Positions 1-45,634 of a stretch of DNA of 64,000 bases are shown one piece after another. Source of the DNA: a virus; IMG/VR virus record IMGVR_UViG_3300025704_002294, positions 1 through 64,000 of that record; one strand, written 5' to 3'. Both the position numbers and the translations under genes were made by a program. The notes below the pieces were generated by a model. That model had not been told where the DNA came from. It saw only the letters and a list, made by a program, of their open reading frames with translations, and searched no databases. Position 1 is the first letter of the stretch. Each line of letters opens with the position of its first letter.

Positions 1-297
1 AATCCTGCAACAGGAAAATATTCAAACTATGTTCCGGACTTTATGATTCAATACACAGATAAAAATGGTTCGCAACACGTTGAACTTATAGAGATCAAAC
101 CTCGTAATCAAACAACAATGGAAAGTGCTAGAACACAAGGACAAGCATTTCAAACTGCCGTAAATGCCGCTAAGTGGACTGCGGCACAAGAATGGTGCAA
201 ACGTAAAGGAATACGTTTTAAAGTAATAAACGAAGACCAAATATTCCAAAATAATAAACCTCGAAAGCCAAAAAGAATTGCTAGGAAACGTAAATGA
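1..297 (+). CDS. Head completion nuclease (T4 gp4 / TnsA-N-like), 5' truncated
   Basis: Frame is open from base 1 (NPATGKYSNYVPDFMIQY). It has YVPDF...ELIEIKP PD-(D/E)xK motifs and NAAKWTAA...FKVINE typical of gp4-like proteins. Confidence 0.8.
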   Translation, partial: NPATGKYSNYVPDFMIQYTDKNGSQHVELIEIKPRNQTTMESARTQGQAFQTAVNAAKWTAAQEWCKRKGIRFKVINEDQIFQNNKPRKPKRIARKRK

Positions 298-785
298 AAA
301 TAGTTGAGATAGCAAATTCAATTGACCATAGGCACATTATAAGAAAAATAATGATAGACAAAAAATGGCCTGCAGGACTTGTAAAAGAAATAGAAGATGA
401 ATGGATTATGTTGGACCCTAATGGTGGCAAAGACGCTGTAGAATATATAAACAACTTAACATTAGTTAAGCCACAACCAGTAAAGATGCCTGTAGAAACA
501 TTATTAAAGCATAAAGATAACATACATCAAATGAAAAATTTGCCCCAAGATATTTTATATAAGATAAAGCAAAATCATCCAAATTCTCAAATACCTAAAT
601 CTGTAAATAAAAACTTTGAAAAAAATCCTAAACGATATGATCAATATTCTAAAATGGACCCTTCTACAGCAAGACCTAGTGTAATGGTAGATGGCGCAAT
701 AGATTTTGGTGTAGGTAGATTTACAGCCGCATTAGTAAGAGGCGACCAGCATCTAAATGTTTGGCAATTACAAGCAAATAAATAA
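294..785 (+). CDS. Hypothetical protein with ParB/Srx-like C-terminus and CTS-like N-terminus
   Basis: Starts MKIVEI. C-terminal PSVMVDGAIDFGVGRFTAALVRG resembles the ParB-N G..R motif. Confidence 0.45.
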   Translation: MKIVEIANSIDHRHIIRKIMIDKKWPAGLVKEIEDEWIMLDPNGGKDAVEYINNLTLVKPQPVKMPVETLLKHKDNIHQMKNLPQDILYKIKQNHPNSQIPKSVNKNFEKNPKRYDQYSKMDPSTARPSVMVDGAIDFGVGRFTAALVRGDQHLNVWQLQANK

Positions 786-789
786 ATGC

Positions 790-1599
790 ATGAAGTTATT
801 AGTAGGCGGTGATAGTTTTGCACAATTTCCAGATCATTCTTTCCAATGTATTGAAACTCGAACGTATATAGATTATCCAGAATCAAACCTGGGAAAAGGG
901 TTCAGACAAAATTTACTTTTTAAACATTGGTGCCAGCATTTAGATGAAAATGCTGTGTCTGTTGGCATTGGTGGATCGGATATAAGCACAACGTCTCTTG
1001 TAACATTACAAGAACTAATGTCCGGTAACTATACACATTGTATATTTTTTGTTACAAATTTCTATAGAGATATTGTAGAGGTTAATAAAGCAGACCCAAT
1101 GGACTCTCCACGTTTTGCTGATCATACAGAATTTGATACGTTATACAAAGATAAAGATTATATTAAGCATATTCACTGGACAAGTGAAAAAGAAGACGAT
1201 GCTGACGATATGTCAGAAAAGGTTTATAGAAAAATTAGGAGTAATGTATGGTTTGATACTGATGAAATAACAGGTAAACATAAACAAGGTTTTCTCACAT
1301 ATCTTAAATATTATGCAGACTTTAAGTATATACACGATAGGTTATCAAATCTAATGTTCTTAAAAAAATATTGCGATGACAACAGCATTAACCTATGTTT
1401 TGTATATCCGTTTTATCCTAATCCTTCTTCGAGAAATACAATAAAGTATATATCGGGAGAACACTTTCACTACCCAATGCTCCAAACTAGATTAACATCA
1501 GAATTTTTTAAATGGGCAGTAACACACCATACTGAAGAAGAGCATACATTTATAGCACACCGCTTCAAAAGACAATACTCTTATTGGTTAAATAAATAG
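790..1599 (+). CDS. SGNH/GDSL-like hydrolase-fold protein (start revised to ATG 790)
   Basis: MKLLVGGDSF block I and C-terminal HHTEEEH. TAAATA at 779-784 lies 5 nt before ATG 790. Confidence 0.55.
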   Translation: MKLLVGGDSFAQFPDHSFQCIETRTYIDYPESNLGKGFRQNLLFKHWCQHLDENAVSVGIGGSDISTTSLVTLQELMSGNYTHCIFFVTNFYRDIVEVNKADPMDSPRFADHTEFDTLYKDKDYIKHIHWTSEKEDDADDMSEKVYRKIRSNVWFDTDEITGKHKQGFLTYLKYYADFKYIHDRLSNLMFLKKYCDDNSINLCFVYPFYPNPSSRNTIKYISGEHFHYPMLQTRLTSEFFKWAVTHHTEEEHTFIAHRFKRQYSYWLNK

Positions 1600-1603
1600 T
1601 AGT

Positions 1604-2092
1604 ATGACAAAGAAATTAGAAGAAGAGTTTAATTTACCGCCTTTAGACGAGGCTCTTGCAAAAGAAAATCCGGAAGAAGTGCCTTCTATAGAAGAAACAA
1701 AACAAGAAATTGTTGCTATGGAAGATGCATTAAGTGTCAGCGAAAAAATTAATATGGCATTTAAAGATGTAAAAGGATTAGAGGAGCATGAACATGAAAT
1801 GAATGACATTGCCAAAGAAGCACTTAGCAGTTATAAACAACTTATGAGTCTAGGCATGAATGTTAGTGATATGGCGGCTGGTAAAGTATTTGCAGAGGCA
1901 AGTAATATGTTAAAGATAGCCTTAGATGCCAGTGATACTAAAACAAAGGCTAAGTTACAGCAAATAGACTTAATGATTAAAAAGGCTAGATTAGATAGTA
2001 ATACCGGAAAAGGTGGAGATATTAACGCAGACGGAAATATACTATATGACAGGAACGAACTTTTAAAAATAATTAATAAAAATGATAAATAA
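1604..2092 (+). CDS. Conserved phage protein, possible terminase small subunit
   Basis: Helical coiled-coil protein ending DRNELLKII. It has a late motif upstream and lies upstream of terL. Confidence 0.4.
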   Translation: MTKKLEEEFNLPPLDEALAKENPEEVPSIEETKQEIVAMEDALSVSEKINMAFKDVKGLEEHEHEMNDIAKEALSSYKQLMSLGMNVSDMAAGKVFAEASNMLKIALDASDTKTKAKLQQIDLMIKKARLDSNTGKGGDINADGNILYDRNELLKIINKNDK

Positions 2093-2113: not shown

Positions 2114-2818
2114 ATGGAATTCAAAGATTATTTAACAGAATCATTTAACAAAGAATACGGCTACAGAGTCAAGTTGGCCTGTAACTGCACAAGCGAACAC
2201 ATGGATATTATTGAGGCTTGCCTTGCAAAATATAATGTTGTAAGTATCTCAGACTTTAAAAGAAAACCAATAGAAGAAAATCCTATGGAATTTTTAAAAG
2301 CCAAAGGTGTTCAAATGGTTTCAGAAGTAAGTAGCACAGACATAGTGTTAAAATATCCTGTTAATGATAGAATTTTAGAAGTATGGTTAGCAGTAAACTT
2401 AGGATTAGACCATGAACGTGTATTATGTTATGGTATTAAAGATCCAAGAAGAATTGAAAGTGATATGGCCGAAGAAAGACATGAGGCTGACAAAGATAGA
2501 TTTGTTACTCATGAAGATGCAGAACTTAATAACGAAGAACAAGCACATTACGAAAACGAAAATGCTGACTTAGACTTTAATGTTGCATTATTTGGTGAAG
2601 AACATAATAAAAAATTCTTAGAAGAACTCCAAAAAATCAAAGATGAAAAAGGTGCAGATTACTTCCGTAATTATCCTTCAAAAGATGAACTTATGGGAGA
2701 TGCTCTAAGACCTACATACGACAATATTGTCGGAACACCTAATATGGGTAAAGGTGCTGAAGGCACTAAAGAGGTATCTAGAGTAACACAGAGTGCAGGT
2801 GCCAGGAGAGCAGGATAA
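2114..2818 (+). CDS. Hypothetical virion/head protein (start revised to ATG 2114)
   Basis: AGGAG SD before ATG 2114. N-terminus MEFKDYLTE is CTS-like. Confidence 0.55.
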   Translation: MEFKDYLTESFNKEYGYRVKLACNCTSEHMDIIEACLAKYNVVSISDFKRKPIEENPMEFLKAKGVQMVSEVSSTDIVLKYPVNDRILEVWLAVNLGLDHERVLCYGIKDPRRIESDMAEERHEADKDRFVTHEDAELNNEEQAHYENENADLDFNVALFGEEHNKKFLEELQKIKDEKGADYFRNYPSKDELMGDALRPTYDNIVGTPNMGKGAEGTKEVSRVTQSAGARRAG

Positions 2819-30187: not shown

Positions 30188-30819
30188 AAATAAAAGATTT
30201 TATAACAGAAAATACACCAGACTCAGTAAAGTCTGACTCAAATAAAGTTGCAGACTTAGTTAGATCTGGGCAAGATATCAATTTGGCCGTAGATACATAT
30301 AGAAATATTCATAGTGGACAATTAGATTATGACGCGGCTTTTTCTAAAGCATCTCAATCTAGATCAGGCTCTAACGAGCCTACTTCAGTAGGCAATACCG
30401 CCGCTATGAATAAGAAAGAAATAGATGCCCTAGTTAGTAAGCAAGTTCAAGATAAATTAAATAAAAACGCCACTGCTAAAAAAGGATTAGGCGGTGAAAT
30501 ACAAAAAGTAAAAGTTGAACCTTCGAGAAGTGAAGAGATGCCAGGTCAATATGTTACAGATCCAAAAACAGGTGCTTTAGTTCCTTCTAAACGTGCTTTT
30601 AGAGGCAATCAATACACAGGAGGAATACCAGGTCCTACTAAAGCAATTCAGAAAGCAAAAGACATTATAGATGATCCTTTATCTTTTATTACTAATCCTT
30701 TAGGTGCAACTGATACAGACGATGCTATAACTAAAGGCTCAGACCTTGGCAGAAGACTATTTACACCCAGAACGGGAATTAAGAAGAGCTCTAAATTATC
30801 TATCCGGTCTCCGCAGTAA
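30184..30819 (+). CDS. Hypothetical internal-head-type protein
   Basis: MKIKDFITE is a close match to the T4 CTS pattern. Confidence 0.55.
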   Translation: MKIKDFITENTPDSVKSDSNKVADLVRSGQDINLAVDTYRNIHSGQLDYDAAFSKASQSRSGSNEPTSVGNTAAMNKKEIDALVSKQVQDKLNKNATAKKGLGGEIQKVKVEPSRSEEMPGQYVTDPKTGALVPSKRAFRGNQYTGGIPGPTKAIQKAKDIIDDPLSFITNPLGATDTDDAITKGSDLGRRLFTPRTGIKKSSKLSIRSPQ

Positions 30820-30905: not shown

Positions 30906-31250
30906 ATGGCACAATCAAAAGGAAATGGAGCCGGTGTTGCCCAGTTTGTAACTGGAACATTAGTTTCAAATCATAATTTACAATCAGTCCTAATTGACAC
31001 AGGTGCAAACCTGCAAACAGAAGATGATGCAACAAGAGAAGCAGTAGAAAGAGCATTAGGTTTTATACAACCACTTATGTATGTTATACCATCAGCAAGT
31101 AATGGTGAAATACATGCTATAGTTGATGCAAGTCAATTTGACGCGGCGTCTTTACAGAAACAAATCAGAGCAATTGGCACTGACGATGTAAACAGTTATA
31201 ACTTTGCAACTGCAACTGTAACAGCAGGAACAGGAATGGTTATTAGTTAA
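30906..31250 (+). CDS. Small virion structural protein
   Basis: Own TAAATA (30857), strong SD and terminator; A/G/T-rich. Confidence 0.65.
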   Translation: MAQSKGNGAGVAQFVTGTLVSNHNLQSVLIDTGANLQTEDDATREAVERALGFIQPLMYVIPSASNGEIHAIVDASQFDAASLQKQIRAIGTDDVNSYNFATATVTAGTGMVIS

Positions 31251-31267
31251 TTTTAAATTAATTTAAG

Positions 31268-31299
31268 AAAAAATGGCGGTTTTAACTGCCATTTTTTTT
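31268..31299 (+). terminator. Rho-independent terminator
   Basis: ATGGCGGTT/AACTGCCAT stem followed by a T run; flanking A run. Confidence 0.8.
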
Positions 31300-31379
31300 G
31301 GGTTTTTTGATAAATATTATTAACAACGCATCATTAGACACTTCGGTGAAGAATTTAATGATCAAAAAGGAGATTAAAA

Positions 31380-31649
31380 ATGGCACAAACGGATAGAAGA
31401 GCGGCGGCAAGCGGCGAGTTTATTGGTAAGGACGTATTCCTTAAAAGTTTCCAACAACAATCAGGAAACATTTCAGCAACTCAACTTACTTCATTAGTAA
31501 GCACAGTTCAAAGTTTAAACCTTTCAATTTTAAAAATAGGTAGTTTTACAGCAGGAACTTCAGACACAGTTAAAATGATTGTTGAAGGTGCAGACAACTT
31601 AGCAAACGGTGACATAGCGGCACACGTTATTGCTGACGTATCGTTCTAA
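31380..31649 (+). CDS. Small virion structural protein
   Basis: Own TAAATA (31311), SD context near-identical to the 30906 gene, and a terminator. Confidence 0.65.
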   Translation: MAQTDRRAAASGEFIGKDVFLKSFQQQSGNISATQLTSLVSTVQSLNLSILKIGSFTAGTSDTVKMIVEGADNLANGDIAAHVIADVSF

Positions 31650-31667
31650 GTTTTTATAACTTAATTT

Positions 31668-31695
31668 AAAAGCACTCTTCGGAGTGCTTTTTTTT
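31668..31695 (+). terminator. Rho-independent terminator with C(UUCG)G tetraloop
   Basis: GCACTC-TTCG-GAGTGC followed by T8. Confidence 0.9.
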
Positions 31696-31747
31696 GGCCC
31701 CATGGTCGACAACTTCTGATAAATAGTGTAATATACAGGAGACACAC

Positions 31748-32152
31748 ATGAGTTTAACAAGAAGTGGCGCAATGGGTAGTTCTGAAGTTGTTTCAGGCAA
31801 CATAGAATTTTTTACATTGTTTACAATGTTAGACATTACACAAACAGGCGATTACAATGACAACAGCCAAAAAGATTTCGAAAGTGTTGTCCAAGTAATA
31901 GGATTAAGAGCAATGCCTGTAGTGATGAATGAACCCGTAGAACTTAGCGGTTCTGGGGCATTTGTTTTAGAAAATTATGGAGCACCAACATTAACAGGAG
32001 CAGGTTGGATATTTAAATTTGCTTTTGAAAGAGAAGGAGTGCATACTATAACTACTTTGACAGATGAATTAAACGGAATAGTATTGAATAGTGGAACAAT
32101 TGATACTAAAATTTCAGTAAATATGGAATTTACTAAACAAGATTTATTATAA
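31748..32152 (+). CDS. Probable virion protein
   Basis: TAAATA at 31720 and AGGAG SD. Confidence 0.6.
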   Translation: MSLTRSGAMGSSEVVSGNIEFFTLFTMLDITQTGDYNDNSQKDFESVVQVIGLRAMPVVMNEPVELSGSGAFVLENYGAPTLTGAGWIFKFAFEREGVHTITTLTDELNGIVLNSGTIDTKISVNMEFTKQDLL

Positions 32153-32162
32153 GAGATAAACG

Positions 32163-32402
32163 ATGCCAAGAAAATCAGAACCAGATAAAAACATAAAACC
32201 TTATGTTGAGTCAGGTAATATAGAAGCACATATTATTGCTGACATGCTAAGAATAGAAAGCATTACAGCAGAGTTACGAGAGTTTAAAGAAACAACAAAA
32301 AGCAGATTAGACAAATTAGAAAGTTGGATAATTGCTATCGTTGGATTAACATTTACTTCGTTGGTTAGTATTATAATAGGAATAGTAATTAATTTAATAT
32401 GA
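32163..32402 (+). CDS. Coiled-coil protein with a C-terminal TM helix
   Basis: Heptad segment followed by WIIAIVGLTFTSLVSIIIGIVI. Confidence 0.6.
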   Translation: MPRKSEPDKNIKPYVESGNIEAHIIADMLRIESITAELREFKETTKSRLDKLESWIIAIVGLTFTSLVSIIIGIVINLI

Positions 32403-32680
32403 TTTTAGAAGAAATAACAAAAGATATAATAGTCGAAAACAGAATGGTCTGGCGTAAGATGGGCAACAAAGTTGTCCGTGCTGTTCGATGCACATCTGGC
32501 AGACGTAAAGGTCGTGTTGTTTCTAAATCGCAACAATGTAGTGCGCCTATTAATATGAAAAAGCGAATGACTATTAAAAAGACAAGAGCAAAAATGGGCG
32601 GAAGAATTGCCAGAAAAGCACAAAGAACTAAACGTATGAATCCTGCTAGTCGAAGAGTAAGATCATTGAATAAGAGATGA
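32399..32680 (+). CDS. Highly basic protein with an acidic CTS-like propeptide
   Basis: MILEEITKDIIVE followed by an R/K-rich body with RCTSG.RKGRVV. Confidence 0.65.
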   Translation: MILEEITKDIIVENRMVWRKMGNKVVRAVRCTSGRRKGRVVSKSQQCSAPINMKKRMTIKKTRAKMGGRIARKAQRTKRMNPASRRVRSLNKR

Positions 32681-32683: not shown

Positions 32684-35600
32684 ATGAAGTTTACTGAAGT
32701 AAAAACATTAGAACATTTATTGAAAGAATACGGAATGTCTAGTTCTGGTTCGCCAACACCTTCCGGGCAACAGCAGTCTGGTAATTTTATAAAAAAAGTT
32801 GCAGGAGATATAGCCAAAAAAGTTGGAGCAAAAGCAAGTTCGGTTGGGCAATCAATGACACAGGCAATAAAAGGAACAGACAGCAAAACAACTCAAAGGA
32901 TAAAAAGTATAGTTCCTCAAAGAGGAGGCAAGATATCTGCAAGTCCTACAATAGGAGGTCAGAAAAACACTCCAGATTCTGTGATTAAAACAAAAGCAGG
33001 AGAAGTAGAAGCAGGTGCAGACATATATGATCAGTATGGTAATTATACAGGCAAAATTGATTCTCCATTAGGAGATAATAAAGCCGGTGGCCCTGAAAAA
33101 ATAGCAATATTAAACAAACAAAACGATTATGAAATCATAGATCCTAATGATGACTTATTTGTATCAAATCCACAAGCAAACGAAGGGAAACTATCTAAAT
33201 TAGCCAAACGCAAAAGCAAACATTCAAGAATAAAAACACTTAGAGGTAAAATTAAAAAATTATCTAAAAAAAGATTAAAAGAAGCAGATCCTAAGTTATT
33301 TGAAATAAATTTTAACAGACAAAATTTAGCAAGACAAAGTTTAGACGCACCTGTGAAATGCGGCTTTGAAGCAGAAACATTTTTCTATAATGTAGATAGT
33401 AGAGGTTCTTCTGACCATATAGACAACATGAGCATCAGTGAAATTGAATACCAATATGGTGATATGCCAGACCAAGTATGGGAAGACTTTGAAGATTGGT
33501 TGTATACTAAAGGACAAGACGAATACCTAGATGACATTATATCTGATAAAGTAGAAGAAGTCAGAGAAGATGAAGACTATCTAAATGACTTTATAGATAG
33601 TGGGGCAGGACCAAGTTCAGAAGCAATCGAAATATACAAAAAAGATTTTGAAGAAAACGATCCAAAAGAATACGAAAACCGTGAGGAAGATGGTTGGGAC
33701 TATATGAACTGGGTCAGAGAATATGTAGAAGAAGAATACGAAGATGAGTATTTGGCTTGGTTAAAAAAAGACGTTGCAGACGGTGATCTAGACGATGAGG
33801 CCAGAGAAGCCGCAAGAGATGATTATAGTGTAGAAGATTGGATATACGACAACTACAGTTACATGAGCAGTTTCCTTGATGATTATGGTTATGAGTATAA
33901 TAGTAGCAGTGAAGGCAATGTTGAAGGTGTTGCAGATGAGTTATACAACTGGATAAAAGATAATAGTAAATTTACAGACTATCCGGAAATAGGTGAGTAT
34001 GACTCCACTAATACCACAACTGCTTGGTCAGTAGAAACTGATAGCAGTATAGAAGCCGATGAAGGAGCAGGTGCAGAATTAATTTCGCCAGTATTTGATT
34101 CACCTAGAAAAATGCTTACAGAAATGAAAAGTTTATTTGACTGGAGTGAAAAAAACTTTGGCACAAACAACTCTACAGGACTACATGTTACTATGAGTTG
34201 GCAAGGTGAAAAAAGAGATTTAGTAAAAACAGACGATGATGAATTTTGGGGAGATGAGGCATCAGAACCAAACAAATTAAAGATGGCATTGCTATTAGGT
34301 GATGAATACTTACTTGCAGAGTTTGGTAGATTGCGTAACAGTTACACAAAAAGTCAATATCAAAATGTATTAAAATATGCAGAAGGCATGAAACGTGGTG
34401 ATGCAAAAAGTTTTGAAGCATTTGAGAAAGAACTTGCTAAAGGCATAGACCCTGGTAAGTTTAACAGTATAAATTTTAAAGGCGAGACTGATAAAGACTC
34501 AGGAAATAACCTTATAGAGTTTAGAATTGCCGGCGGTGTAGACTATAACACAATGTATGATAAAGTTGTTAAAGCATGTGTGAGATATGCTACTGTAATG
34601 AAAGCAGGATATAGTAAAGATGCTTTTAGACCAGAATATGTTAAAGCAGTATTTAGATTATTGCGTAAGTCACAGGAAATAGATCCTAAAAAATTAAAAA
34701 ATTTAGAAGTAGTTAATCACGAAGTAATAGATGCCGCCAAGAGCATTGTAGGCAAAAAAGATTACTTTGATGTAATTAAATTTCTAAGTGCCAGTGTTGA
34801 GTATTTACAAAACTATGAAAAATTAAGTAGTCCAGATGCAGATAAAATATGGAAGCAGGAAATAAAAGATTTCGAAAAAGGTACTGGTACTAAAGTAGAA
34901 ATAGAAGAAGAAACAATCAAAGGATATGTACAGCCTAACAGTATGTCACCAAGCAAGAGAGCGGCAGGCGAATTAGACAAAGCACAAGATAGATTTGGAT
35001 CAGCAGTAACATTATTAGCAAAAGACATAGCAGACGGTAATAACAGAGCACCTGTTACTGCTAAAAACATTGCGTCGTTTAGAAAGTTTGCCAAAGAATT
35101 ACAACTAAACAGTGATAGCATGGAAACACTGGTTTTTTCAAGTATGGAGAATCATAACATTGAAGGTTCTGACAAAGACAAAGTATTAATATTACAAAAA
35201 GGAATAAACACTTTATTCAAGCAAGACATAATTAAAAACCCAGAATATTTATCTCCGCAAGATGTAGACCGCATTGCCAGTAAAATGTGGCAGTTCTATC
35301 AATCAGACGATAGCAAAGATAATGTCAAATTAGATAAACTTGCAGACTTACTGGTTGTTTTAACCCCTGCAAACAAAAAAATAGATGTCGAAAACACATT
35401 AAGAGAATTATCTCATGAAAGACAAGAAAATAGTTTTGTTGCTAAACTGAAAGGCCGTGGATGGAATGTAAGAAACGAGTTATTAAAAAGCAATAGAATT
35501 ACCACAAAAGATTCAGCACAAGAATTATTAAAATTCTTAGAACCATATCAAGGTTACAAACATCCAACAAGCAGAGATCATCATGTTAATATTAAAAGTG

Positions 35601-38600
35601 ATGACAAATATTCAGACGTATTCCAGATGAGGCTCACACAGAGATTAAGAGACAGGTTAGATCATTTGAAAGATCTAGAAAGGGAAGACAAAGAAAAATT
35701 TGTAACTATTGCTAAACAAGTAAGCAAATTAGGATTAGAATTATTGGAAGGCTTAAAACCTAGACCAGATCTTTGGGCCGAAGATGAAAATGGATACACA
35801 CAAATCAACCGTGGCTCCGATGGAGAATCAAACTTGGCTTCGCATAGTAGTTTAGAACGTTGGAACGATGTAATGGACAGGCTTGTAAAAGCAGACAGTG
35901 AAATAGAGGCAGATGAACAAACATTTAATTTGCCTGCTCTTATAGATGATTATGTAGTAGGATCTATGCATATGGATAGATATTTTGCTTGGAAAGAAAA
36001 CAACGGGCCTGAGCAAGGTGCTGTTCTAAGACAATTACATAAAGAAAGATTTGCGGCAATAAAAAAATTCTTATCAGGATTTGATAAAATATTCCAGAAA
36101 GAAGGATTTGTAAATCTTAAACAAGAAATACAAGCAAAAAATACATTAGATAGAAGAAATAGAGACTTTGAAAAGAATGTCAGAGACAACGCAAAAGCAA
36201 AACTTAATATACCAAGTCACAGTTGGGTGTATATAGACCGAGACTTTTTTGATACTATCACAGATGAAGACTATGACGACAGAGAAGCATATTTAGATAG
36301 CAATTTAGATCATTTTAACGACAAAGTAAACCAGAGTAAAGTTTATGTTATACCTTCCAGTCACTGGAGTGATGCCGAAGATGCCACAAACGGTTTAGAA
36401 CTTATAGACACTTTTGAAAAAAATAAAAACTATTATCACACTTGGCGTAAAAAGGGTTATAAAAAAATAGTAAATAGATTCAACAACAAATATGGTTATA
36501 GTTGGAAGGACTTAAATGTCAAAGAAGCATTCATTCAAGGCGATGGTGATGTATACCACAAATTAAAAAATATCGGTATTGAAGTCACTCACAAAGGCGA
36601 CAGCAGAAAAGGTGCACCTGGACAAGACGATTTATTCCCAGATGAAGAAACACAAAATCCCAAAAGCGGTGAACCACTAAACAGAAGCAGTGGTATAAGT
36701 TGGGAAAATATGGATGATGAGGCAGAGCAAAAACGTTTTGATGCATTTGATTGGGAACAGTACCCAGCAAAAATGAAAGATGTAGTTGCTAAAGAAATGG
36801 CCAACAAACAAAGCAGTGGTGGTAGTTTTAAGGTAGCATTAGATAATATACTTAAAAAAGTACTTGACGGCGATGTAGGTATAGACAAAGACGATCTAGG
36901 CAAACCCTTAGACAAGATGGCTATAGCGGCTGGTATTGAACCCGACAATGGTGGTTCCTCAAATGGCATAGCAGGTGAAACAGATTGGGGCAATTTAGCA
37001 GACCATTTAGGAATAGAACGTGGCGTAAATGACCAGGGTGTAAACTTATTGAGAAAAGTATATCAACAGTTTGATGGCGACCACAACTGGAGACCTGCTG
37101 AAACCGACGAGAACGGCAAAAATGTAATTGGATTAGCAAGATGGGGTGCCGCAGTAAGAGATGCAGAAAAATATATCAGAGACAACTACAATGTGAGTGG
37201 TGGTAACTATTTTAGAAAAGATGCAGACGGTAATGATGACGATGATGTAAGCGGAGTATACGGAAGTTCAGATTGGACAAATACAGATTACGATAAAGCC
37301 AGGAAACACAGATTGTTTAATATTATGATGCAACAGGGAATGCAGAATTACTTACCAAAAGGCGAAGTAAATAAATTGGTAGCATTTTTAAACAATCCTC
37401 AGCAAGACACCAACTTTAAGAAAGAGGTTTTAGCAATACTTAGACTTAATGGACCTTTTGATACGTTTATGGGTGCCGTAAATGCGGCAAAAGAAATTTC
37501 ACAAGAAAGTATCTTTACCAAGTTTGATAAACTGCCTTTACAAGAACAGTTGCGTATATTACACGAATCAAATGTATTAGAAAAATTTACAAGAAATGAA
37601 AATACAATAAATACTAATATGAAAAAGTTTAACGAAGGCGAAGAAAGAAGTATTATTGCTAACAGTTGTGTTGAAAAATTAGTAGATGAGTTTAGTGGAA
37701 GAGAAAATCAATTTGCAAACAAAGATGATTTAGAATATGCAATATACCAAGCACTAGAAGACCTAGATGTAGAAGATTGTGTAGACCCAGAGATGGAAGT
37801 AGGCGGACAACCAATTGGGCACTTTGCTAGTGGCAGAGTAATTGATTGTTGCAGTAGCAGTGACATTATATATGATGTTATGGCTCATATGGACGAAACA
37901 CAAATAGGTGAAGCAAAAAAACCAAAAATGCCAAAGCAGAATAATCCAGTAGCAAAGAACAGCAAAAACATGCCAGGTGCTGGCGCACACAAATCACCAA
38001 AAGATTACGATAGAAAAAAAATTAAAGCAGATATCCGCAAAGAATTAGATGACAGTACCTATGTAAATAATATTATGCCTAGTGTTTTTGAAAGATTTGA
38101 AAAATTACCAATACAAAAACAATTAGAATTATTGAACACACCTATTGTTGAGGGTTATTTTAAAAATTTAGATACTATAGACAAAGAACAGAAAAGACTA
38201 GGAGTAGGAAAATATAATAAAGTAAGTAAAAGTGTTAAAAAGCCTGCCGGATCATATAATAAAGAACAGCATATAAAAAATACTTACAACAAGTTTAAAA
38301 CACAACATGGCGAAGTAAAGGCACAGGCTATGTTAAATAAAATGATCGACCGTGGATACTTTGACAAATCAAAAACAGAAAGTTTGTTAGGCATAGATGT
38401 ATTATTAAGAACTAAAAGACTAACAGAAAACATGCCTAACAATAACAAACTTGCTATACTAAAAAAATTATTATCAAAACATTTTCCAGTTGGTAATTTA
38501 GATATGCAATTCCAGGCATATTTAGCATTACCAATACCAAGGATGATGACAGCATTTAGCCAATTAAAAAGCATAGAAGGGCCAGAAGCATGTGGTAGAG

Positions 38601-39748
38601 ACATCCTAATGCATTTTGCAAAAAATAGATTACCAGATGCAGAAGTAAAACAACTTAATCTCAATGAAAGTTATATCAAAGAGGATGCAACAGAAGACAG
38701 ATTAAACAGCATAATGACTGCATTAGAAAAAAATCCAAATTTTGCTAGACGAGTTTACAAAATGTTAAAACTTGATAAAGAGTCTGCAGACCATTTGGAT
38801 ATTGAAGATAGACTTAAAAATAATGACACTGGTAAGGAAAACGATCATAGAATTAATAAGAATATTATGAGACAATTAGTTTTATCACTTGAACAACTAG
38901 ATCATGATTTTGACGAAATAGATGCATTTGTTGAAACTTACGGACATGCAGATTATGTAAACACAGAATTATTAAACAAGTCTGGTGTATTTAAAATTTC
39001 AGACATGTTTGTCGGAACTGATGCAGTATCTAAAGAATTTATAGATGATCTTTATGAAAAATTATTTGACTTTAGAATTAATATATCTGGATCAAACAGA
39101 GGGCCAGGTGAACTTGGATTGTGTTTACTGTCACCTAATGTAGAACTTGCTTCGGTAGGTGATATCAAAGTTAATGGCGAAGAAATAGAAGTTAAAGGTG
39201 AGGTATCGTCAGGTGGCGGTAGAATGGTTAACGGTATTGACGACTTTAAGTTTAGTGGATTAGCACAGGTCAAATCACAACTAGTACCATTTTATGAAAA
39301 GCATGATATTCCAGAAGAATTAAGAATTTACAATTTAAAAGGTGCAGTTGGCGGAGGCCGTAATCAGGGTCAGGCTCATATACTAGATCAAGCACAACAA
39401 TTAGAACAAGTAAAACAAGGTGTAGGTGCTGAATTTTTAAAATTAATTGTTAGCACATATCAATTTGTTATTGACTCAGAAGAAGAAGCAGAATTAACAA
39501 GTTCATTTATGAATATGGATAAGACAAGGTTCTTAACACTTGTAGGATTAATGTCATTTAAAAATTATGCATACATGTTAAACAAAAAAGGATTCAATAG
39601 ATTAATATTTTTAAATTGGAGATATGATAAAGTAGTAAATTGTACAACAGAAGAATTTCCAAAATACAGTGAGCATTTAGCATTTACAAGTTTAGATATG
39701 GCAGACAGTCAAAATGGTCCAGCAGTACAGGTATCAGTGTTAAAATGA
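32684..39748 (+). CDS. 2354-aa polyprotein: amidoligase (COOH-NH2 ligase) domain, multiple modules, C-terminal PD-(D/E)xK-like domain
   Basis: CGFEAE, DSSI, GAELISP, TNNSTGLHVTMS, KFNSIN and IEFRIAGG (approx 33350-34620); GPGE...GDIKVNGEEIEVKG near 39100-39200. Confidence 0.75.
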   Translation: MKFTEVKTLEHLLKEYGMSSSGSPTPSGQQQSGNFIKKVAGDIAKKVGAKASSVGQSMTQAIKGTDSKTTQRIKSIVPQRGGKISASPTIGGQKNTPDSVIKTKAGEVEAGADIYDQYGNYTGKIDSPLGDNKAGGPEKIAILNKQNDYEIIDPNDDLFVSNPQANEGKLSKLAKRKSKHSRIKTLRGKIKKLSKKRLKEADPKLFEINFNRQNLARQSLDAPVKCGFEAETFFYNVDSRGSSDHIDNMSISEIEYQYGDMPDQVWEDFEDWLYTKGQDEYLDDIISDKVEEVREDEDYLNDFIDSGAGPSSEAIEIYKKDFEENDPKEYENREEDGWDYMNWVREYVEEEYEDEYLAWLKKDVADGDLDDEAREAARDDYSVEDWIYDNYSYMSSFLDDYGYEYNSSSEGNVEGVADELYNWIKDNSKFTDYPEIGEYDSTNTTTAWSVETDSSIEADEGAGAELISPVFDSPRKMLTEMKSLFDWSEKNFGTNNSTGLHVTMSWQGEKRDLVKTDDDEFWGDEASEPNKLKMALLLGDEYLLAEFGRLRNSYTKSQYQNVLKYAEGMKRGDAKSFEAFEKELAKGIDPGKFNSINFKGETDKDSGNNLIEFRIAGGVDYNTMYDKVVKACVRYATVMKAGYSKDAFRPEYVKAVFRLLRKSQEIDPKKLKNLEVVNHEVIDAAKSIVGKKDYFDVIKFLSASVEYLQNYEKLSSPDADKIWKQEIKDFEKGTGTKVEIEEETIKGYVQPNSMSPSKRAAGELDKAQDRFGSAVTLLAKDIADGNNRAPVTAKNIASFRKFAKELQLNSDSMETLVFSSMENHNIEGSDKDKVLILQKGINTLFKQDIIKNPEYLSPQDVDRIASKMWQFYQSDDSKDNVKLDKLADLLVVLTPANKKIDVENTLRELSHERQENSFVAKLKGRGWNVRNELLKSNRITTKDSAQELLKFLEPYQGYKHPTSRDHHVNIKSDDKYSDVFQMRLTQRLRDRLDHLKDLEREDKEKFVTIAKQVSKLGLELLEGLKPRPDLWAEDENGYTQINRGSDGESNLASHSSLERWNDVMDRLVKADSEIEADEQTFNLPALIDDYVVGSMHMDRYFAWKENNGPEQGAVLRQLHKERFAAIKKFLSGFDKIFQKEGFVNLKQEIQAKNTLDRRNRDFEKNVRDNAKAKLNIPSHSWVYIDRDFFDTITDEDYDDREAYLDSNLDHFNDKVNQSKVYVIPSSHWSDAEDATNGLELIDTFEKNKNYYHTWRKKGYKKIVNRFNNKYGYSWKDLNVKEAFIQGDGDVYHKLKNIGIEVTHKGDSRKGAPGQDDLFPDEETQNPKSGEPLNRSSGISWENMDDEAEQKRFDAFDWEQYPAKMKDVVAKEMANKQSSGGSFKVALDNILKKVLDGDVGIDKDDLGKPLDKMAIAAGIEPDNGGSSNGIAGETDWGNLADHLGIERGVNDQGVNLLRKVYQQFDGDHNWRPAETDENGKNVIGLARWGAAVRDAEKYIRDNYNVSGGNYFRKDADGNDDDDVSGVYGSSDWTNTDYDKARKHRLFNIMMQQGMQNYLPKGEVNKLVAFLNNPQQDTNFKKEVLAILRLNGPFDTFMGAVNAAKEISQESIFTKFDKLPLQEQLRILHESNVLEKFTRNENTINTNMKKFNEGEERSIIANSCVEKLVDEFSGRENQFANKDDLEYAIYQALEDLDVEDCVDPEMEVGGQPIGHFASGRVIDCCSSSDIIYDVMAHMDETQIGEAKKPKMPKQNNPVAKNSKNMPGAGAHKSPKDYDRKKIKADIRKELDDSTYVNNIMPSVFERFEKLPIQKQLELLNTPIVEGYFKNLDTIDKEQKRLGVGKYNKVSKSVKKPAGSYNKEQHIKNTYNKFKTQHGEVKAQAMLNKMIDRGYFDKSKTESLLGIDVLLRTKRLTENMPNNNKLAILKKLLSKHFPVGNLDMQFQAYLALPIPRMMTAFSQLKSIEGPEACGRDILMHFAKNRLPDAEVKQLNLNESYIKEDATEDRLNSIMTALEKNPNFARRVYKMLKLDKESADHLDIEDRLKNNDTGKENDHRINKNIMRQLVLSLEQLDHDFDEIDAFVETYGHADYVNTELLNKSGVFKISDMFVGTDAVSKEFIDDLYEKLFDFRINISGSNRGPGELGLCLLSPNVELASVGDIKVNGEEIEVKGEVSSGGGRMVNGIDDFKFSGLAQVKSQLVPFYEKHDIPEELRIYNLKGAVGGGRNQGQAHILDQAQQLEQVKQGVGAEFLKLIVSTYQFVIDSEEEAELTSSFMNMDKTRFLTLVGLMSFKNYAYMLNKKGFNRLIFLNWRYDKVVNCTTEEFPKYSEHLAFTSLDMADSQNGPAVQVSVLK
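37608..37621 (+). promoter_or_regulatory. Internal late-type promoter plus in-frame ATG inside the giant ORF
   Basis: TAAATACTAATATG is identical to the terL start context; ATG 37619 is codon 1646. Confidence 0.5.
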
Positions 39749-41775
39749 GATTATACGAAGTAACTAAACCTGGACAATGCCCAAGAACAAAAGCAACCGA
39801 ATGCAGTTGCGAAAGGCTAAGGCAATTATCAGAAGCAGAAAAGCCTATAAAAGCAGTTGCAGTACTAGAACACGGCGATGCTAAAGGCATAATTAATTTT
39901 GTACAAAAGCCAGGTAAAGCAACAATTATAAGCGGTACTATAAGCGGCTTAACAGAAGGCTTACATGGATTTCACATACACGAATTTGGCGATCTCAGTG
40001 ATGGATGCGATAGTGCAGGCGGTCATTATAATCCGCATGGTGTCGATCATGGCGATGTAGATAATGGTCATATCGGCGACTTAGGAAATATAGAAGCCAA
40101 CAGCAAAGGTGTAGCAGAATTTAAAATAAAATCCAAAACAATTCAATTACAAGGTGCCACAAGCATAGTTGGTAGAGCAGTTGTTGTACACCAAGACGAA
40201 GACGACTTAGGCAAAGGCGGCGATGAGGAAAGTTTAAAAACAGGCAACGCAGGTGATAGAGCAGGATGCGGTGTAATAAAATTATCTGAATTAACACAAT
40301 CAGCAATAGCAGATTTAGATAAAAACATTAGCGACAAGCATTTTAGTAGAAATGAAATGCCGCAAGTCAAAGAACCAGATTTAATAGATAATGATATACC
40401 TTATAAAAAAGGCAAAATAAGTGTAACAAATATTAAACCAGTTCAAACAGATAGAGTACCAGGATTAGCACAAAAAGTTGCAGAAGACTTTCACGGTAAA
40501 GACAAGCCTTTTATACTAGATAAAAACAATTACTTGGTTAATGGTCATCATAGATATGATGCGGCTAGATTATTAGGCATAGAAAAAGTAGATGCAATAA
40601 AAGTAAATGTGCCTATTGAATTATTAATGAAACAATTTAGCCATACCACTAGTGATACAATGGTCGAACATCTAAGCGACGAGGCATCAACGCCAGAAAT
40701 ACACAACAAAGCATTGCAAATGGCCAAGGATGCATATAGAAAGTCTAATAAACAAGTGTCATTTACTGCATTATATGATAAGGCACTAAATAAATTACAA
40801 CCCGGAAACCCACCAACAAAACTAAGTCCTGGTTTCAAGTTAGGTAAACTTCCACATGAAGAAGTAGAGTCAGTTATTCATCAATGGGTCAATCAAGAAG
40901 ATCACATAGAATTAAGTAATGGCATGCATGTACTCAGTGGTGAGAATCACGGTTATGATGATAATGTAGCACTAATAGTTGATGCTGATTATAAAATATT
41001 GGACCATGATGATGACATTGTTGAACTAATGCAACAATTCACAGCACAAGAAATAAACCCAAGCATTGTAGAAAACTTTGACGATGGTAAAAAGAAAGGC
41101 AAAAGCAGACCAGGTAGAGTAAAACGTAGTGGAGCAAGTTGCAATGGTAGTGTTACAGCATTACGCAAACGTGCAAAAAACAGCAGTGGTGAAAAAGCAA
41201 AAATGTATCATTGGTGTGCTAATATGAAGTCTGGCAAAAAGAAAACAAATGAAGATATGGAGAATTTATCTCCTAGTGCAAAACTGGCAGGCGAATATAT
41301 TGACAGTGACGTTAAGAGTGGCAAAATTAAAAACCTAGATGACCTCAAAAGATATATAGTAGAATTACGACTTTCAAGGATAATAGATCATGCCGAAGAT
41401 GCCAGAGCACTTTGGATACATCACTTGACCGTCAATCCACACAATTTACCAGATGCAGTCAACGAATCAGCATTTGAAAATTTAAAATTACCAACTTGGA
41501 TGTCACATACCAGTTTAGAAAAATTATTTGCACAAGAGTACGGTCCTAGATACGGTGACTATGTTGCACATATGGACCTAGACAGTGACGACGATTTGGC
41601 AATGAATGCCAGTGGCATGGGTGATATGGCTTTTGAAATGGTTAAAGCAAATGATATCAAAGTTATGCAAAAATTCTTAGCACAAATGCCTGTGCAGTTT
41701 ACAGTAGATGACCTTAGATTAGACGACGGTATTCAAGTTTGGCATCTAGTTCAACAAAACAAAACTGTACACTAA
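39745..41775 (+). CDS. sodC: Polyprotein: Cu/Zn superoxide dismutase + ParB-like domain + further modules
   Basis: HGFHIHEFGD, GGHYNP, HIGDLGN, GRAVVVH and GNAGDRAGCGVI; ParB-like LVNGHHRYDAA; basic NFDDGKKKG module. Confidence 0.85.
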   Translation: MRLYEVTKPGQCPRTKATECSCERLRQLSEAEKPIKAVAVLEHGDAKGIINFVQKPGKATIISGTISGLTEGLHGFHIHEFGDLSDGCDSAGGHYNPHGVDHGDVDNGHIGDLGNIEANSKGVAEFKIKSKTIQLQGATSIVGRAVVVHQDEDDLGKGGDEESLKTGNAGDRAGCGVIKLSELTQSAIADLDKNISDKHFSRNEMPQVKEPDLIDNDIPYKKGKISVTNIKPVQTDRVPGLAQKVAEDFHGKDKPFILDKNNYLVNGHHRYDAARLLGIEKVDAIKVNVPIELLMKQFSHTTSDTMVEHLSDEASTPEIHNKALQMAKDAYRKSNKQVSFTALYDKALNKLQPGNPPTKLSPGFKLGKLPHEEVESVIHQWVNQEDHIELSNGMHVLSGENHGYDDNVALIVDADYKILDHDDDIVELMQQFTAQEINPSIVENFDDGKKKGKSRPGRVKRSGASCNGSVTALRKRAKNSSGEKAKMYHWCANMKSGKKKTNEDMENLSPSAKLAGEYIDSDVKSGKIKNLDDLKRYIVELRLSRIIDHAEDARALWIHHLTVNPHNLPDAVNESAFENLKLPTWMSHTSLEKLFAQEYGPRYGDYVAHMDLDSDDDLAMNASGMGDMAFEMVKANDIKVMQKFLAQMPVQFTVDDLRLDDGIQVWHLVQQNKTVH

Positions 41776-43253: not shown

Positions 43254-43267
43254 AGATAAATACATAT

Positions 43268-43423
43268 ATGCGTATAAAAGAGGTTGACATAAACATAGAT
43301 TCGTTCTATAATAGTATCAATGAAACAGTAGCAGGTGCTATTGGTGGCGTGGCAATGCCTCTATTCAAAGAACCAATAAAACGCAAGCCTACTAAGAAAA
43401 AGAAGAAAAAGAAAAATGCGTAG
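43268..43423 (+). CDS. 51-aa basic peptide with CTS-like leader (not in ORF track)
   Basis: MRIKEVDINIDSFYNSINETVAGAIGGVAMPLFKEPIKRKPTKKKKKKKNA; TAAATA-N5-ATG. Confidence 0.7.
   Translation: MRIKEVDINIDSFYNSINETVAGAIGGVAMPLFKEPIKRKPTKKKKKKKNA
43284..43312 (+). promoter_or_regulatory. Perfect sigma70 consensus promoter embedded in a CDS
   Basis: TTGACA-17-TATAAT. Confidence 0.6.
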
Positions 43424-43637: not shown

Positions 43638-44034
43638 TTTAAAATCACAACTTCAAGAAGTACTAAGTGGTATTATTGCTACTTTAGATATATATGAAGT
43701 CGTTGACAATGGCGATACTTACGATATAGTAAATCTTAAAAACAATGAAATAGTATGCGAAGAAATACATTTAAACATTGTTGCAAATATTGTTGCCGCG
43801 GCAATGAATACTGGCGAAGATCTAAATACGTCTACTATAGATAAGATATTAAAAACAGAAAAATATGCTGTATCTAAAATGGTAGAAGTCAAAATATACG
43901 AAGAGTTGACGGAAAATTCTACAAATTTTGACAGAATGGCAATTTATGAAACCAAACTTACAGAGGCAGAACACAAATCTAGTAATGCAATTAACAATTT
44001 GCTGTCACAATGTCAACTGTTAATCTCCTTATAA
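43591..44034 (+). CDS. Hypothetical protein
   Basis: Operonic ORF; exact start uncertain. Confidence 0.55.
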   Translation: MDKTDIDYMQQVNESDLKSQLQEVLSGIIATLDIYEVVDNGDTYDIVNLKNNEIVCEEIHLNIVANIVAAAMNTGEDLNTSTIDKILKTEKYAVSKMVEVKIYEELTENSTNFDRMAIYETKLTEAEHKSSNAINNLLSQCQLLISL

Positions 44035-44075
44035 AAGTACTTCTTTGATAAATATAACTATTAGAAGGGACTACT

Positions 44076-45275
44076 ATGGAAGTAAAACATTTAAATTCAG
44101 ATAACTTAACTAGATTAGGTAAACTTCAGAATTACCTAACAGAAAATTATGACATCAACGTCAACAAAGTTTTACCTAAGCAGAAGTTAGAACAAGCATA
44201 TCAAAATGTTGAAAAAAGACTTGTAAATTTAAGAAATAAAAGTAACAAGTTTCAACAAGATCCTAACTATGGTATGAATATTATGGTTAGAGATGCATTA
44301 GGCATCATGATAAACGAAGGTCTATACTACGAAGGTGAAACATATCGCAGACTAATGGACGAACTGCATGAATACAGTTGCTCATTAGCAGAAAGTGGCG
44401 ACGACTACGATACTATAATGGACAGTTGCAGTAAAAAATATGAGGCCATGCCTGCTAGATATCCAAAAGATATGATACTAGCCGCTATTGCAGAAAAAAT
44501 AATGCCTATGTTCGATGGCAGTATGCAAGAAGACATAGAAGACGAAATAATGGACGTTATTGACGAACCAGAAGTAAAAATTAATGTAGATAATTCAGAA
44601 GATATCCCTTCAAACTTCGAAAATGCTACGGAAGAAATGTTAGCAGAACTAATTGGTGATTATCTAGGAAAAGATAATTGGAAAGAATTTGCATTAGGCG
44701 AACTATTTTCAGAATTAGAAAGTGTTGATATAGAAAAAGCAAATAAGGTAGATAATATGGCAAAAAAATATGGAATAACAGACTTAAAAGAAATGAAGCA
44801 ATTTGAAACATTCTTAGATGATCTAGTAAGCGAGATGGTTGGAGATGACACAATTACTGAAGAAATTTCAGGTACTAGTGTTGAAGAAGCAGAAGTTGTT
44901 ATGGCGGCAAGAGCCTTAAGTAACGACATTCAAGACCACATTGAAAGAATCGGTAGAATGGCAAACGAAGATATACCTTCAATTGCTGATTCAATGGCAC
45001 ATGAATTTGGTGCACAAAAAGCCGCAGAATTCAAAAATCAAATGGAAGGATTACTAAGTTCTTTACTTGATGCTAACAAAAGTTCAAAAGAAGGTGTCGA
45101 CGCTCTTATTGGTACAATGACTGGAGAAGAATCAGCCGCACCAATGCCATCAGAAGATCCACTAGGTGGTGACATGATGGAACCAGCACTAGATGAACCA
45201 GTAGATGATTTTGCTGGTGCAGACGCAGAAGCAGGACCTGAAGAAGAACCTCTAGGTAGAGCAGAAAAGATTTAA
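44076..45275 (+). CDS. Acidic prohead core/scaffold-like protein
   Basis: TAAATA at 44049; acidic and helical; several [LI]xE sites; ends EEPLGRAEK. Confidence 0.5.
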   Translation: MEVKHLNSDNLTRLGKLQNYLTENYDINVNKVLPKQKLEQAYQNVEKRLVNLRNKSNKFQQDPNYGMNIMVRDALGIMINEGLYYEGETYRRLMDELHEYSCSLAESGDDYDTIMDSCSKKYEAMPARYPKDMILAAIAEKIMPMFDGSMQEDIEDEIMDVIDEPEVKINVDNSEDIPSNFENATEEMLAELIGDYLGKDNWKEFALGELFSELESVDIEKANKVDNMAKKYGITDLKEMKQFETFLDDLVSEMVGDDTITEEISGTSVEEAEVVMAARALSNDIQDHIERIGRMANEDIPSIADSMAHEFGAQKAAEFKNQMEGLLSSLLDANKSSKEGVDALIGTMTGEESAAPMPSEDPLGGDMMEPALDEPVDDFAGADAEAGPEEEPLGRAEKI

Positions 45276-45277
45276 TC

Positions 45278-45634
45278 ATGAGGTTTACGGACTTTGCACT
45301 CACAGAATCTGACATGAATGATGTTACATCAGACGTTAAGGAACTTGTTATTAACAAAATAGACGGTGGTGTGCAGTCTGCAAGTCTTGATGCATTTGTA
45401 GAAGAAGTAAACAATTTAGGTATTCCAATTTCAAAAGCAATGCTTAGATTAATTTTAGAGTCACCAGAGTTTGAAAACTTAATTGCAAACGTAGACAATT
45501 CAGAAATAGAATTTAATACACCTGGAAATGTGCCAGACGAAATGGTACCAGAACCAGAAGACATGGAAAATAATGTTTCTAACTTGGCAACATCGGCCGC
45601 TAACCAAGGCATAGGAGATGAACTAAATGTCTGA
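45278..45634 (+). CDS. Hypothetical head protein with CTS-like leader
   Basis: Starts MRFTDFALTE. Confidence 0.55.
   Translation: MRFTDFALTESDMNDVTSDVKELVINKIDGGVQSASLDAFVEEVNNLGIPISKAMLRLILESPEFENLIANVDNSEIEFNTPGNVPDEMVPEPEDMENNVSNLATSAANQGIGDELNV

Follow-up and report, generated by a model that had tools for sequence, protein, structure and literature searches.

The leader-bearing gene cluster and its source

The stretch of DNA analysed here (the window) comprises the first 64 kb of IMG/VR record IMGVR_UViG_3300025704_002294, a 94.2-kb contig with 34% G+C that is 26% complete according to CheckV. Almost all genes of the window lie on the + strand. Between the gene for a gp41-type helicase and the nrdAB genes is a cluster of ∼20 kb, at least ten unrelated proteins of which, together with one encoded near the TerL (terminase) gene, start with a leader of 9–30 residues. 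The leader core has the form M-[KR]-h-x-[ED]-h-h-x-E (h, hydrophobic residue), with a consensus of approximately MKINEIITE, and is made up of two tandem h-x-E units. An earlier reading of this DNA, made without database searches (hereafter the sequence-only reading), had quoted eleven N-termini of this kind, beginning at positions 294, 2114, 26041, 27798, 30184, 32399, 32684, 39745, 43268 and 45278 and, inside a gene, at 37619; all 11 were found there. Its proposal of a common start pattern holds for most of these proteins, usually with a second h-x-E, but the N-terminus at 32399 does not fit, that at 26041 scores low, and those at 294 and 37619 are unproven.

According to TerL, the closest isolate is the Pseudomonas jumbo phage PA5oct (57% identity), whose 126–164 kb region is collinear with positions 1.6–52 kb of the window. 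Some genes are shared with the Kyanoviridae, one of which codes for a DUF6267 protein (Melnitz, HTVC008M and cyanophages; 40–42% identity), and contigs bearing DUF6267 homologues reach 323 kb. A megablast search of the leader cluster against isolate phages gave no match. Given the synteny with PA5oct, the TerL match, the gene shared with Kyanoviridae and the long homologue contigs, the window is assigned to a jumbo myophage of the T4 superfamily that is marine, abundant and uncultured.

The leader-bearing genes are described below with the predicted cleavage position marked by a slash; all of them, and the other cluster features given as ranges, are on the + strand. Bit scores refer to the leader profile introduced in a later section. 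The only clear member outside the cluster (2114..2818) encodes a 234-amino acid (aa) protein with the leader MEFKDYLTE/S and is located two genes upstream of the TerL gene. Its start codon is an ATG behind an AAGGAG Shine-Dalgarno sequence and not the upstream GTG at 2093. The protein matches phrog_14802 (virion structural protein) and is orthologous to PA5oct gp282 (E 2.6e-12).

The first tagged gene of the cluster (26041..27801) encodes a 586-aa protein with no assigned function and the leader MKIDHLVLKE/D. Despite its low profile score, its orthologues retain M-K-I-x-x-h-h-x-E, which abuts a conserved RGQxY block. No orthologue of the gene was found in five related records, including one that is 92% identical in the superoxide dismutase (SOD) gene of the cluster. 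This distribution shows fast turnover of cargo genes, and since the gene is absent even from so close a relative, the cluster is hypervariable. The 211-aa basic protein encoded at 30184..30819 (leader MKIKDFITE/N, 8.1 bits) has an orthologue in the related locus L023 that begins with MKINDFITE; the isoelectric point (pI) predicted for its mature part is 9.6.

Two further products are small and strongly basic, as the sequence-only reading had noticed: their mature forms have predicted pI values of 12.0 and 10.9. The first, a 93-aa protein (32399..32680), resembles a T4 internal protein and carries an acidic 13-aa leader, MILEEI...IIVE/N. This N-terminus is off-pattern, but the orthologues start with MRFNEV, MRINEV, MRYEDI or MRIVEV and have an h-x-E directly before the conserved basic core MVWRK. 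A homologue is present in the Salicola jumbo phage SCTP-2. The second, a 51-aa peptide with a poly-Lys tail (43268..43423; leader MRIKEV...INE/T, 9.7 bits), has a relative in L013 that starts with MKINDIITE/T. In L013, L015 and L023, the SOD module is immediately preceded by, and fused to, a poly-Lys module like that of the 51-aa peptide.

The last two members lie side by side. The 399-aa protein encoded at 44076..45275 (leader MEVKHL...YLTE/N) had been missed by the sequence-only reading; in its 18 distinct orthologues a start of M-x-h-[KR]-[DE]-F-N is followed, near residue 22, by a conserved LKE or LTE. It matches phrog_14154 (virion structural protein) and is the orthologue of PA5oct gp247 (E 1.4e-15). 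The gene at 45278..45634 encodes a 118-aa acidic protein with the leader MRFTDFALTE/S (10.2 bits).

The 2354-aa protein and the SOD fusion

The largest leader-bearing gene (32684..39748; leader MKFTEV...LLKE/Y, 9.5 bits) encodes a 2354-aa multi-module protein of the polyvalent type. Two unrelated N-terminal segments occur among its orthologues, each starting with M-K-h-x-[DE]-h. The orthologues of L008, L004, L007 and L071 are 95% identical to the window protein from residue 60, while their first 40–60 residues differ wholly from its N-terminal segment (encoded at 32684–32860), with the leader core present in both. The C-terminal 305 aa resemble stand-alone viral proteins. An internal in-frame MKKFNE (37619..37636; residue 1646) is preceded by an ATAAATA-N5 arrangement (37607–37636) and falls where the alignments with orthologues stop, at about residue 1626–1651; it could be a nested start or what remains of a leader-bearing gene that was fused here.

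The amidoligase and the nuclease named by the sequence-only reading have weak leads in this protein. For the amidoligase, the search with Amidoligase_2 (PF12224) gave no Pfam match in residues 200–700 even at E 5, and what is left is a lead, an ESM Atlas likeness of 0.95 between the same residues and viral amidoligase clusters. For the nuclease, there is a restriction-enzyme lead in the C-terminal 305 aa that reaches only 0.82. Pfam searches with pieces of the 2354-aa protein and with the proteins encoded at 26041, 30184, 2114 and 294 returned nothing usable, also at E 5.

The adjoining gene (39745..41775) encodes a 676-aa protein composed of a Cu/Zn SOD domain, a ParB-like region and modules without assignment. 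Its N-terminus consists of the leader MRLYEV, followed by the segment CPRTKAxxCxC and then by QLSE/A. The SOD assignment of the sequence-only reading is firm: PF00080 matches residues 47–178 with an E-value of 1.2e-43 and 149 bits (cut-off 28.9) over profile positions 2–133 of 133. Of the ParB domains it named, this protein has a ParB-like region (phrog_620, E 3.6e-7); a second such region, encoded at 29051, is weak and belongs to a protein without a leader.

About 40 distinct SOD homologues have the same order of elements: leader, CPRTKAxxCxC, [ILM]-x-E and SOD domain. In fusion proteins with modules ahead of SOD (∼690 aa; one of 2404 aa), the SOD domain retains both the Cys segment and the h-x-E, and the leader is found only at the new N-terminus. 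Metal handling and a knuckle structure are both possible roles of CPRTKAxxCxC. None of the phage Cu/Zn SODs (window 39745–39840 and L003–L081) has a signal peptide. A literature search on virion SOD in phages found nothing relevant.

Specificity of the leader

The start pattern of the sequence-only reading, M[KRE]h.[EDH]h anchored at the N-terminus, occurs at 11 of the 117 gene starts of the 94-kb contig and at two of its 728 internal Met residues. Permutation of the alignment columns gave an expectation of 1.18 and a maximum of 7 (20,000 permutations). This pattern had been fitted to the window, and therefore an independent five-residue profile was trained on 28 distinct leaders of SOD homologues, all from other contigs. 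Scoring of the open reading frames (ORFs) with a profile, a check put forward by the sequence-only reading, recovered seven non-SOD N-termini at 5 bits or more in the 94-kb contig, and none of its 723 internal Met residues; with shuffled sequences, 0.9 N-termini passed on average and never more than 5. Five N-termini (27798, 30184, 32684, 43268 and 45278) reached at least 7.5 bits and, together with that of the SOD protein, all lie within 27.8–45.6 kb.

In a control with T4 DNA, three of 94 ORFs scored 5 bits or more with the same profile, and single scores of about 5 bits (294, 11881) are therefore unsafe. The hits at 294, 11881 and 91040 are probably due to chance. The protein encoded at 11881 looks like a membrane protein. 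The 163-aa protein encoded at 294..785 (start MKIVEI; 5.3 bits, in the false-positive range) has no nearby h-x-E, and the only orthologues found are at least 86% identical and thus too similar to be of use; we count it as no more than a possible member.

The shared start could in principle serve translation, for instance as a favourable initiation context in AT-rich late operons, or follow an N-terminal rule of protein stability, and be irrelevant to the virion. Many gene starts of this contig have Lys or Arg at position 2 and AT-rich early codons, and the short core arises by chance in 1–3% of ORFs. On the other hand, the codons and the upstream DNA vary between the leader genes while the residues are kept, which places the likeness at the peptide level; on the same grounds, we rejected the idea that the start stems from a DNA repeat or promoter cassette. 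The structural genes and those that look most strongly expressed lack the leader. It is likewise absent from most genes in which the ATG follows an ATAAATA box by five nucleotides, and, as the sequence-only reading had stated, from the recognised replication and metabolic enzymes (TerL, SSB, UvsX, the helicases, primase, MetK and NrdAB). Finally, initiation does not explain the conserved acidic and hydrophobic positions or the precise position of a second h-x-E at domain boundaries (see below). We consider such an origin improbable.

Conservation of the leader across families

For a broader survey, 79 related marine loci were fetched with the SOD-ParB protein as the query, and all of their ORFs were clustered. 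In about 20 unrelated families the leader is present in 60–100% of the members. More than 150 other families never carry it, including all recognisable replication and structural genes. Of 150 distinct leader N-termini, 52% contain a second [LIVMF]-x-E whose Glu falls within residues 7–13, compared to 12% of 1,583 others (odds ratio 7.8; Fisher 5e-28), and the P3 residue of these second sites is I or L in 79% of cases. The leader occurs only at the extreme N-terminus; where SOD or DUF6267 lies behind other modules, the leader is found at the new N-terminus.

The DUF6267 family offers a natural experiment. The window member (27798..29054; PF19782, E 1e-102) has a 17-aa leader, MRINEV...IICE/A. 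A full-library search for DUF6267 yielded 150 representatives at 50% identity, 103 of which have the domain near the N-terminus. Thirteen of the 103 begin directly at the conserved KNTHLEH block. The other 90 are extended, and in 85 of these the last h-x-E lies ahead of the conserved His, ending 3–11 residues from it. Twenty-eight DUF6267 representatives match M..F..[FY][LI].E, the exact T4 register (background 9/1,733), and 10 the shorter register (background 37/1,733). The proteins of the cyanophages P-HM2 and S-SZBM1 have no extension. In an AlphaFold2 model of the window protein (mean predicted local distance difference test score, pLDDT, 90.9), residues 1–16 score below 50 and the fold starts near residue 20. 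The existence of leaderless orthologues, the h-x-E at the boundary and the low pLDDT of residues 1–16 together show that the DUF6267 leader can be dispensed with and is an addition whose final Glu lies just ahead of the domain.

The possibility that the resemblance is accidental, and inflated by a pattern defined after the data had been viewed, was weighed against these results. The initial pattern was indeed loose and window-fitted, and three of the hits (294, 11881 and 91040) are probably spurious. Nevertheless, a profile built from a single family on other contigs recovers other families, the leader is conserved at the family level over dozens of contigs, and the DUF6267 boundary statistics are independent of the window. 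These results, and the enrichment of the second h-x-E, contradict an accidental origin, which we regard as extremely improbable. The leader family is real and extends far beyond the window.

The DUF6267 protein had been called ligase-like in the sequence-only reading, and this label is reasonable, if not proven. The KxDG, EG and K motifs (K67, D69, G70, E386, G387 and K399) do not vary among 81 sequences, the structures closest to the model are those of RNA ligases (modest Z-scores of 8.2–7.6), and several relatives are fused to a cytidylyltransferase/NMNAT-like domain. On these grounds, the family looks like an RNA/DNA-ligase-type nucleotidyltransferase. The family corresponds to the cyanophage core family T4-GC71. 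Foldseek gave no match to the model at E 1e-3 or better, PDB sequence searches with DUF6267 and the 26041 protein gave nothing useful, and no paper mentioning DUF6267 was found.

Prohead protease and virion proteomes

A gp21-like prohead protease, expected by the sequence-only reading elsewhere in the genome, was identified in a relative. The 196.6-kb contig G002, whose core genes are collinear with those of the window, encodes a PF03420 (Peptidase_S77) protein (E 4e-27) whose gene neighbours are those for portal, scaffold-like and capsid-like proteins, and the leader genes of this contig form one cluster at 157–168 kb. In PA5oct, an annotated head maturation protease gene is located between the portal and capsid genes. 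The capsid proteins of G002 and PA5oct have in common an N-terminal site, ALTE/GL, that recalls FLTE/A of T4 gp23.

Published virion proteomes of PA5oct and of the cyanophages S-SM1 and S-SZBM1 list orthologues or family members that carry the leader; these data report virion association only, without N-termini or the site within the virion. In PA5oct, 12 proteins of the DnaB-type helicase-to-NrdA cluster are flagged as virion proteins by electrospray ionization tandem mass spectrometry (MS). Among these 12 are gp247, the orthologue of the protein encoded at 44076, and gp246, which occupies the position equivalent to 45278 and starts with (V)KIKDILVE/S; gp282, the orthologue of the 2114 protein, is likewise MS-detected. 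The 73-aa protein gp333, also MS-detected, starts with the consensus leader MKINDIITE/G; its gene lies between those for the portal and the prohead core/protease, where gene 67 is found in T4. Four of the five strict-motif proteins encoded in 150 kb of PA5oct are MS-positive, compared to a base rate of 93/461 (binomial ∼0.007).

In S-SM1, six virion-detected proteins are encoded in the syntenic gp41-to-gp61 cluster. The cytidylyltransferase GC190, represented by 25 peptides, starts with MKKFSAFLNE, and GC1455 starts with MLSFKELQE. The accessible part of the S-SZBM1 report lists the cytidylyltransferase, which starts with MRFRQFIIE/A, among the virion proteins and does not name its leaderless DUF6267 neighbour. 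As far as that part of the report goes, the presence of the leader tracks virion detection, which a feature of translation or stability would not explain. The authors of the S-CREM2 study noted that cytidylyltransferases recur in cyanophage virions, but considered it unclear whether they are truly packaged and cautioned about carry-over in CsCl preparations. The leader on the cytidylyltransferases of S-SM1 and S-SZBM1 offers a possible explanation for this doubted detection.

Comparison with T4 and proposed function of the leader

Three N-terminal propeptides of T4 (NC_000866) provide the closest parallel: MKTYQEFIAE of ipII and ipIII, MELITELFDE of alt and MAKINELLRE of gp24, each with two h-x-E units. 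In T4, the internal proteins IPI–III carry a capsid targeting sequence (CTS), which the prohead protease gp21 removes, as it does the related propeptides of Alt and gp24 (Mullaney and Black 1996, reviewed in PMC9026906 and PMC3012670). For targeting, positions 4 and 7 of the CTS matter most, and for processing positions 8 and 10 (PMC9026906). The window leaders resemble this system in being N-terminal tags of about 10 residues on unrelated proteins, with a spacing like that of positions 4 and 7 and a terminal [I/L]-x-E, in marking both small basic cargo and large enzymes, and in the presence of an S77 protease in the lineage. Many DUF6267 relatives are in the exact T4 register, with the consensus MK[SN]FKQ[FY]L[TS]E, as are proteins of Melnitz and S-SM1. 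Unlike the T4 tag, the window leaders are one residue shorter in register, and some have 17–30 residues with additional conserved elements (e.g., CPRTKAxxCxC before SOD). The predicted cargo set is also far larger than in T4, with the 2354-aa protein, the Cu/Zn SOD and the ligase-like enzyme among its members, and is encoded in one hypervariable helicase–nrdA cluster.

Taken together, the profile statistics, the conservation across families, the likeness to T4, the protease in relatives and the virion data make a T4-like leader for capsid targeting, with loading into the head and removal as a propeptide by gp21-type clipping after Glu, the best explanation, and we consider it likely to be correct. 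The capsid-targeting proposal of the sequence-only reading thus gains support from the T4-like build of the leader, its nature as an N-terminal add-on, the S77 protease of relatives and the virion proteomes. Under this explanation, late in infection the leader would bind the scaffolding core of the assembling prohead, a gp21-type prohead protease would cut after the Glu of [I/L]-x-E, and the mature proteins thus freed would stay beside the DNA in the head and pass into the host when the phage infects. The predicted cargo would consist of the two small, very basic internal-protein-like proteins, the DUF6267 protein, the SOD and ParB-like fusion, the 2354-aa polyvalent protein and several proteins without assigned function.

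Several observations weigh against this explanation. The five-residue core alone has the background frequency given above (1–3%). Neither a PF03420 protease nor a PF07068 capsid protein was found in the 94-kb contig (26% complete); PF03420 had no match in nine other related records either, and since all of these are fragments, these negatives are uninformative. The PA5oct virion list also includes NrdAB, UvsX and thymidylate synthase and is therefore not clean. Several MS-detected cluster proteins have no leader, which means that proteins can associate with the virion without one. Cleavage of the leader is something that we infer from the sequence. Lastly, the 2354-aa protein contains 30 [LIVM]-x-E sites with no enrichment; polyprotein cleavage at internal h-x-E sites was considered for this protein and is not claimed, as this lack of enrichment leaves it without sequence support.

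The main rival to head loading holds that the tagged proteins go elsewhere in the virion. The leader would then be an assembly or propeptide signal for the neck, tail lumen, baseplate or capsid exterior, or would only keep enzymes inactive before cleavage. This is compatible with proteomes that report association rather than location, with the leaderless virion proteins also encoded in the cluster, and with the 2114 gene, which adjoins packaging and structural genes outside the cargo cluster. However, the build of the leader specifically matches the head propeptides of T4, gp333 with its consensus leader is encoded between portal and protease genes like the T4 prohead-core gene 67, and the small, very basic cargo (pI 11–12) resembles DNA-associated internal proteins. 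We therefore judge a destination other than the head interior to be unlikely, if the least unlikely of the alternatives considered.

Head loading through the leader has counterparts in other phages. In phiKZ-like giants (phiKZ, SPN3US), dozens of head-internal proteins are cut after Glu (small-x-E) by a homologous protease; these sites differ in being A/S/G-x-E, mostly behind propeptides of more than 100 residues, and no common short N-terminal tag is present. The sequence-only reading called the cargo far richer than that of T4, which is true, but it is not unprecedented, as phiKZ-like phages already have a rich head cargo. Polyvalent proteins (Iyer et al. 2017, PMC5512222), which combine 2–15 conflict-related domains in a single chain, are similar in their great size and multi-modular build, in having genes that lie among those of virion proteins, in their predicted packaging and injection along with the DNA, and in ParB-like domains as typical components. 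In that work, packaging was deduced from gene context and MuF/portal fusions, and no leader, CTS or SOD was mentioned. In the window, size, virion-gene context and module swapping among orthologues fit the polyvalent type. The only recognised domains in the candidates are SOD and the ParB-like region of the 676-aa protein, in addition to the amidoligase-like lead; most modules of the 2354-aa protein have none. We propose that the N-terminal tag may supply a concrete loading mechanism for polyvalent proteins here. The cyanophage cytidylyltransferase (NMNAT-like, T4-GC190) is comparable in its repeated detection in virions (S-SM1, S-SZBM1, S-SCSM1 and S-CREM2) and in its syntenic helicase-to-nrdA cluster; it differs in that the papers give no loading mechanism and that the window has no leader-tagged copy.

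A review suggests that related phages may load varied proteins via the CTS (PMC9026906). Beyond one review sentence, no paper linking the CTS to cyanophages or marine phages was found, nor one recognising the tag in marine phages, PA5oct or polyvalent proteins. The principle itself is known from T4.

A broader proposal, towards which we lean only slightly, is that this sequence-readable tag defines the whole injected proteome of the marine jumbo clade, pelagiphages, methylophages and many cyanophages. The cargo genes would be plug-in cassettes, in which any gene placed behind the tag becomes head cargo; in evolution, a constant leader would be kept while genes or modules are put behind it. If true, this would explain the hypervariable helicase–nrdA cluster and the unexplained virion enzymes of cyanophages, as well as the delivery of polyvalent giants, a virion-borne Cu/Zn SOD and an RNA-ligase-like enzyme.

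Proteins that enter the cell with the DNA are the first weapons against host defences and are hard to learn for uncultured phages. If the tag works as in T4, the injected set could be listed from sequence alone for a clade frequently encountered in Tara and other ocean data, and the polyvalent-protein hypothesis would gain a testable loading signal. Some of the predicted cargo is unexpected: a Cu/Zn SOD that has no signal peptide, a ligase-like enzyme and basic proteins like the T4 internal proteins. Since PA5oct is cultivable and its gp333 carries the consensus tag, the idea is directly testable in that phage.

Leaderless neighbours, promoter-like boxes and core genes

The sequence-only reading had assigned about 20 kb to cargo. 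This would apply to the leader-tagged genes, but eight or nine cluster genes have no leader and some of these encode ordinary virion proteins. The first gene past the gp41-type helicase gene (25782..26051) encodes an 89-aa leaderless protein that matches phrog_11854 (virion structural protein, E 1.6e-20) and is the orthologue of PA5oct gp259. The 378-aa protein encoded at 29051..30187 contains a weak ParB-like region (phrog_8071, E 1.5e-4; ddrB-ParB of Pfam below the cut-off) and also has no leader. Four small leaderless proteins of 114, 89, 134 and 79 aa are encoded at 30906..32402, the first three behind strong Shine-Dalgarno sequences. That encoded at 31748–32152 is the orthologue of the MS-detected PA5oct gp250, and all four are probably ordinary virion proteins and not tagged cargo.

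ATAAATA boxes resembling T4-type late promoters lie just upstream of the cluster operons and of 2114. One putative promoter of this kind (25745..25751) is located 30 nt upstream of the first cluster gene, and similar boxes precede 30184, 30906, 31380, 31748, 41796, 43268, 44076 and 46692. Late expression of the cluster would fit these boxes. At 1592, 3928, 6406, 41783, 43256, 46680, 56236 and 60751, ATAAATA lies exactly 5–6 nt before a start codon, leaving no space for a Shine-Dalgarno sequence, an arrangement that suggests leaderless late mRNAs.

The core genes of the window were identified by PHROG and Pfam scans. They encode TerL (4819), SSB (7863), UvsX (8890), a UvsW-type helicase (13994), MetK (17855), a primase (22673), the gp41/DnaB-type helicase (24360), and NrdA and NrdB (48865–52241). 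The IMG/VR record is labelled a provirus; its gene content and synteny with PA5oct instead look like those of a lytic jumbo phage fragment. A 192-aa protein (20856–21434), conserved in PA5oct and G002, matches phrog_11778 (E 2e-65), which is annotated as a DNA polymerase; its size is far below that of any polymerase. Beyond the window, the minus strand of the contig encodes a 793-aa protein (69936–72317, contig coordinates) that starts with MNLQSLLEA. It contains a segment with 84% identity to a leader-bearing protein of 126 aa from G002 (163975–164355), another case of module shuffling.

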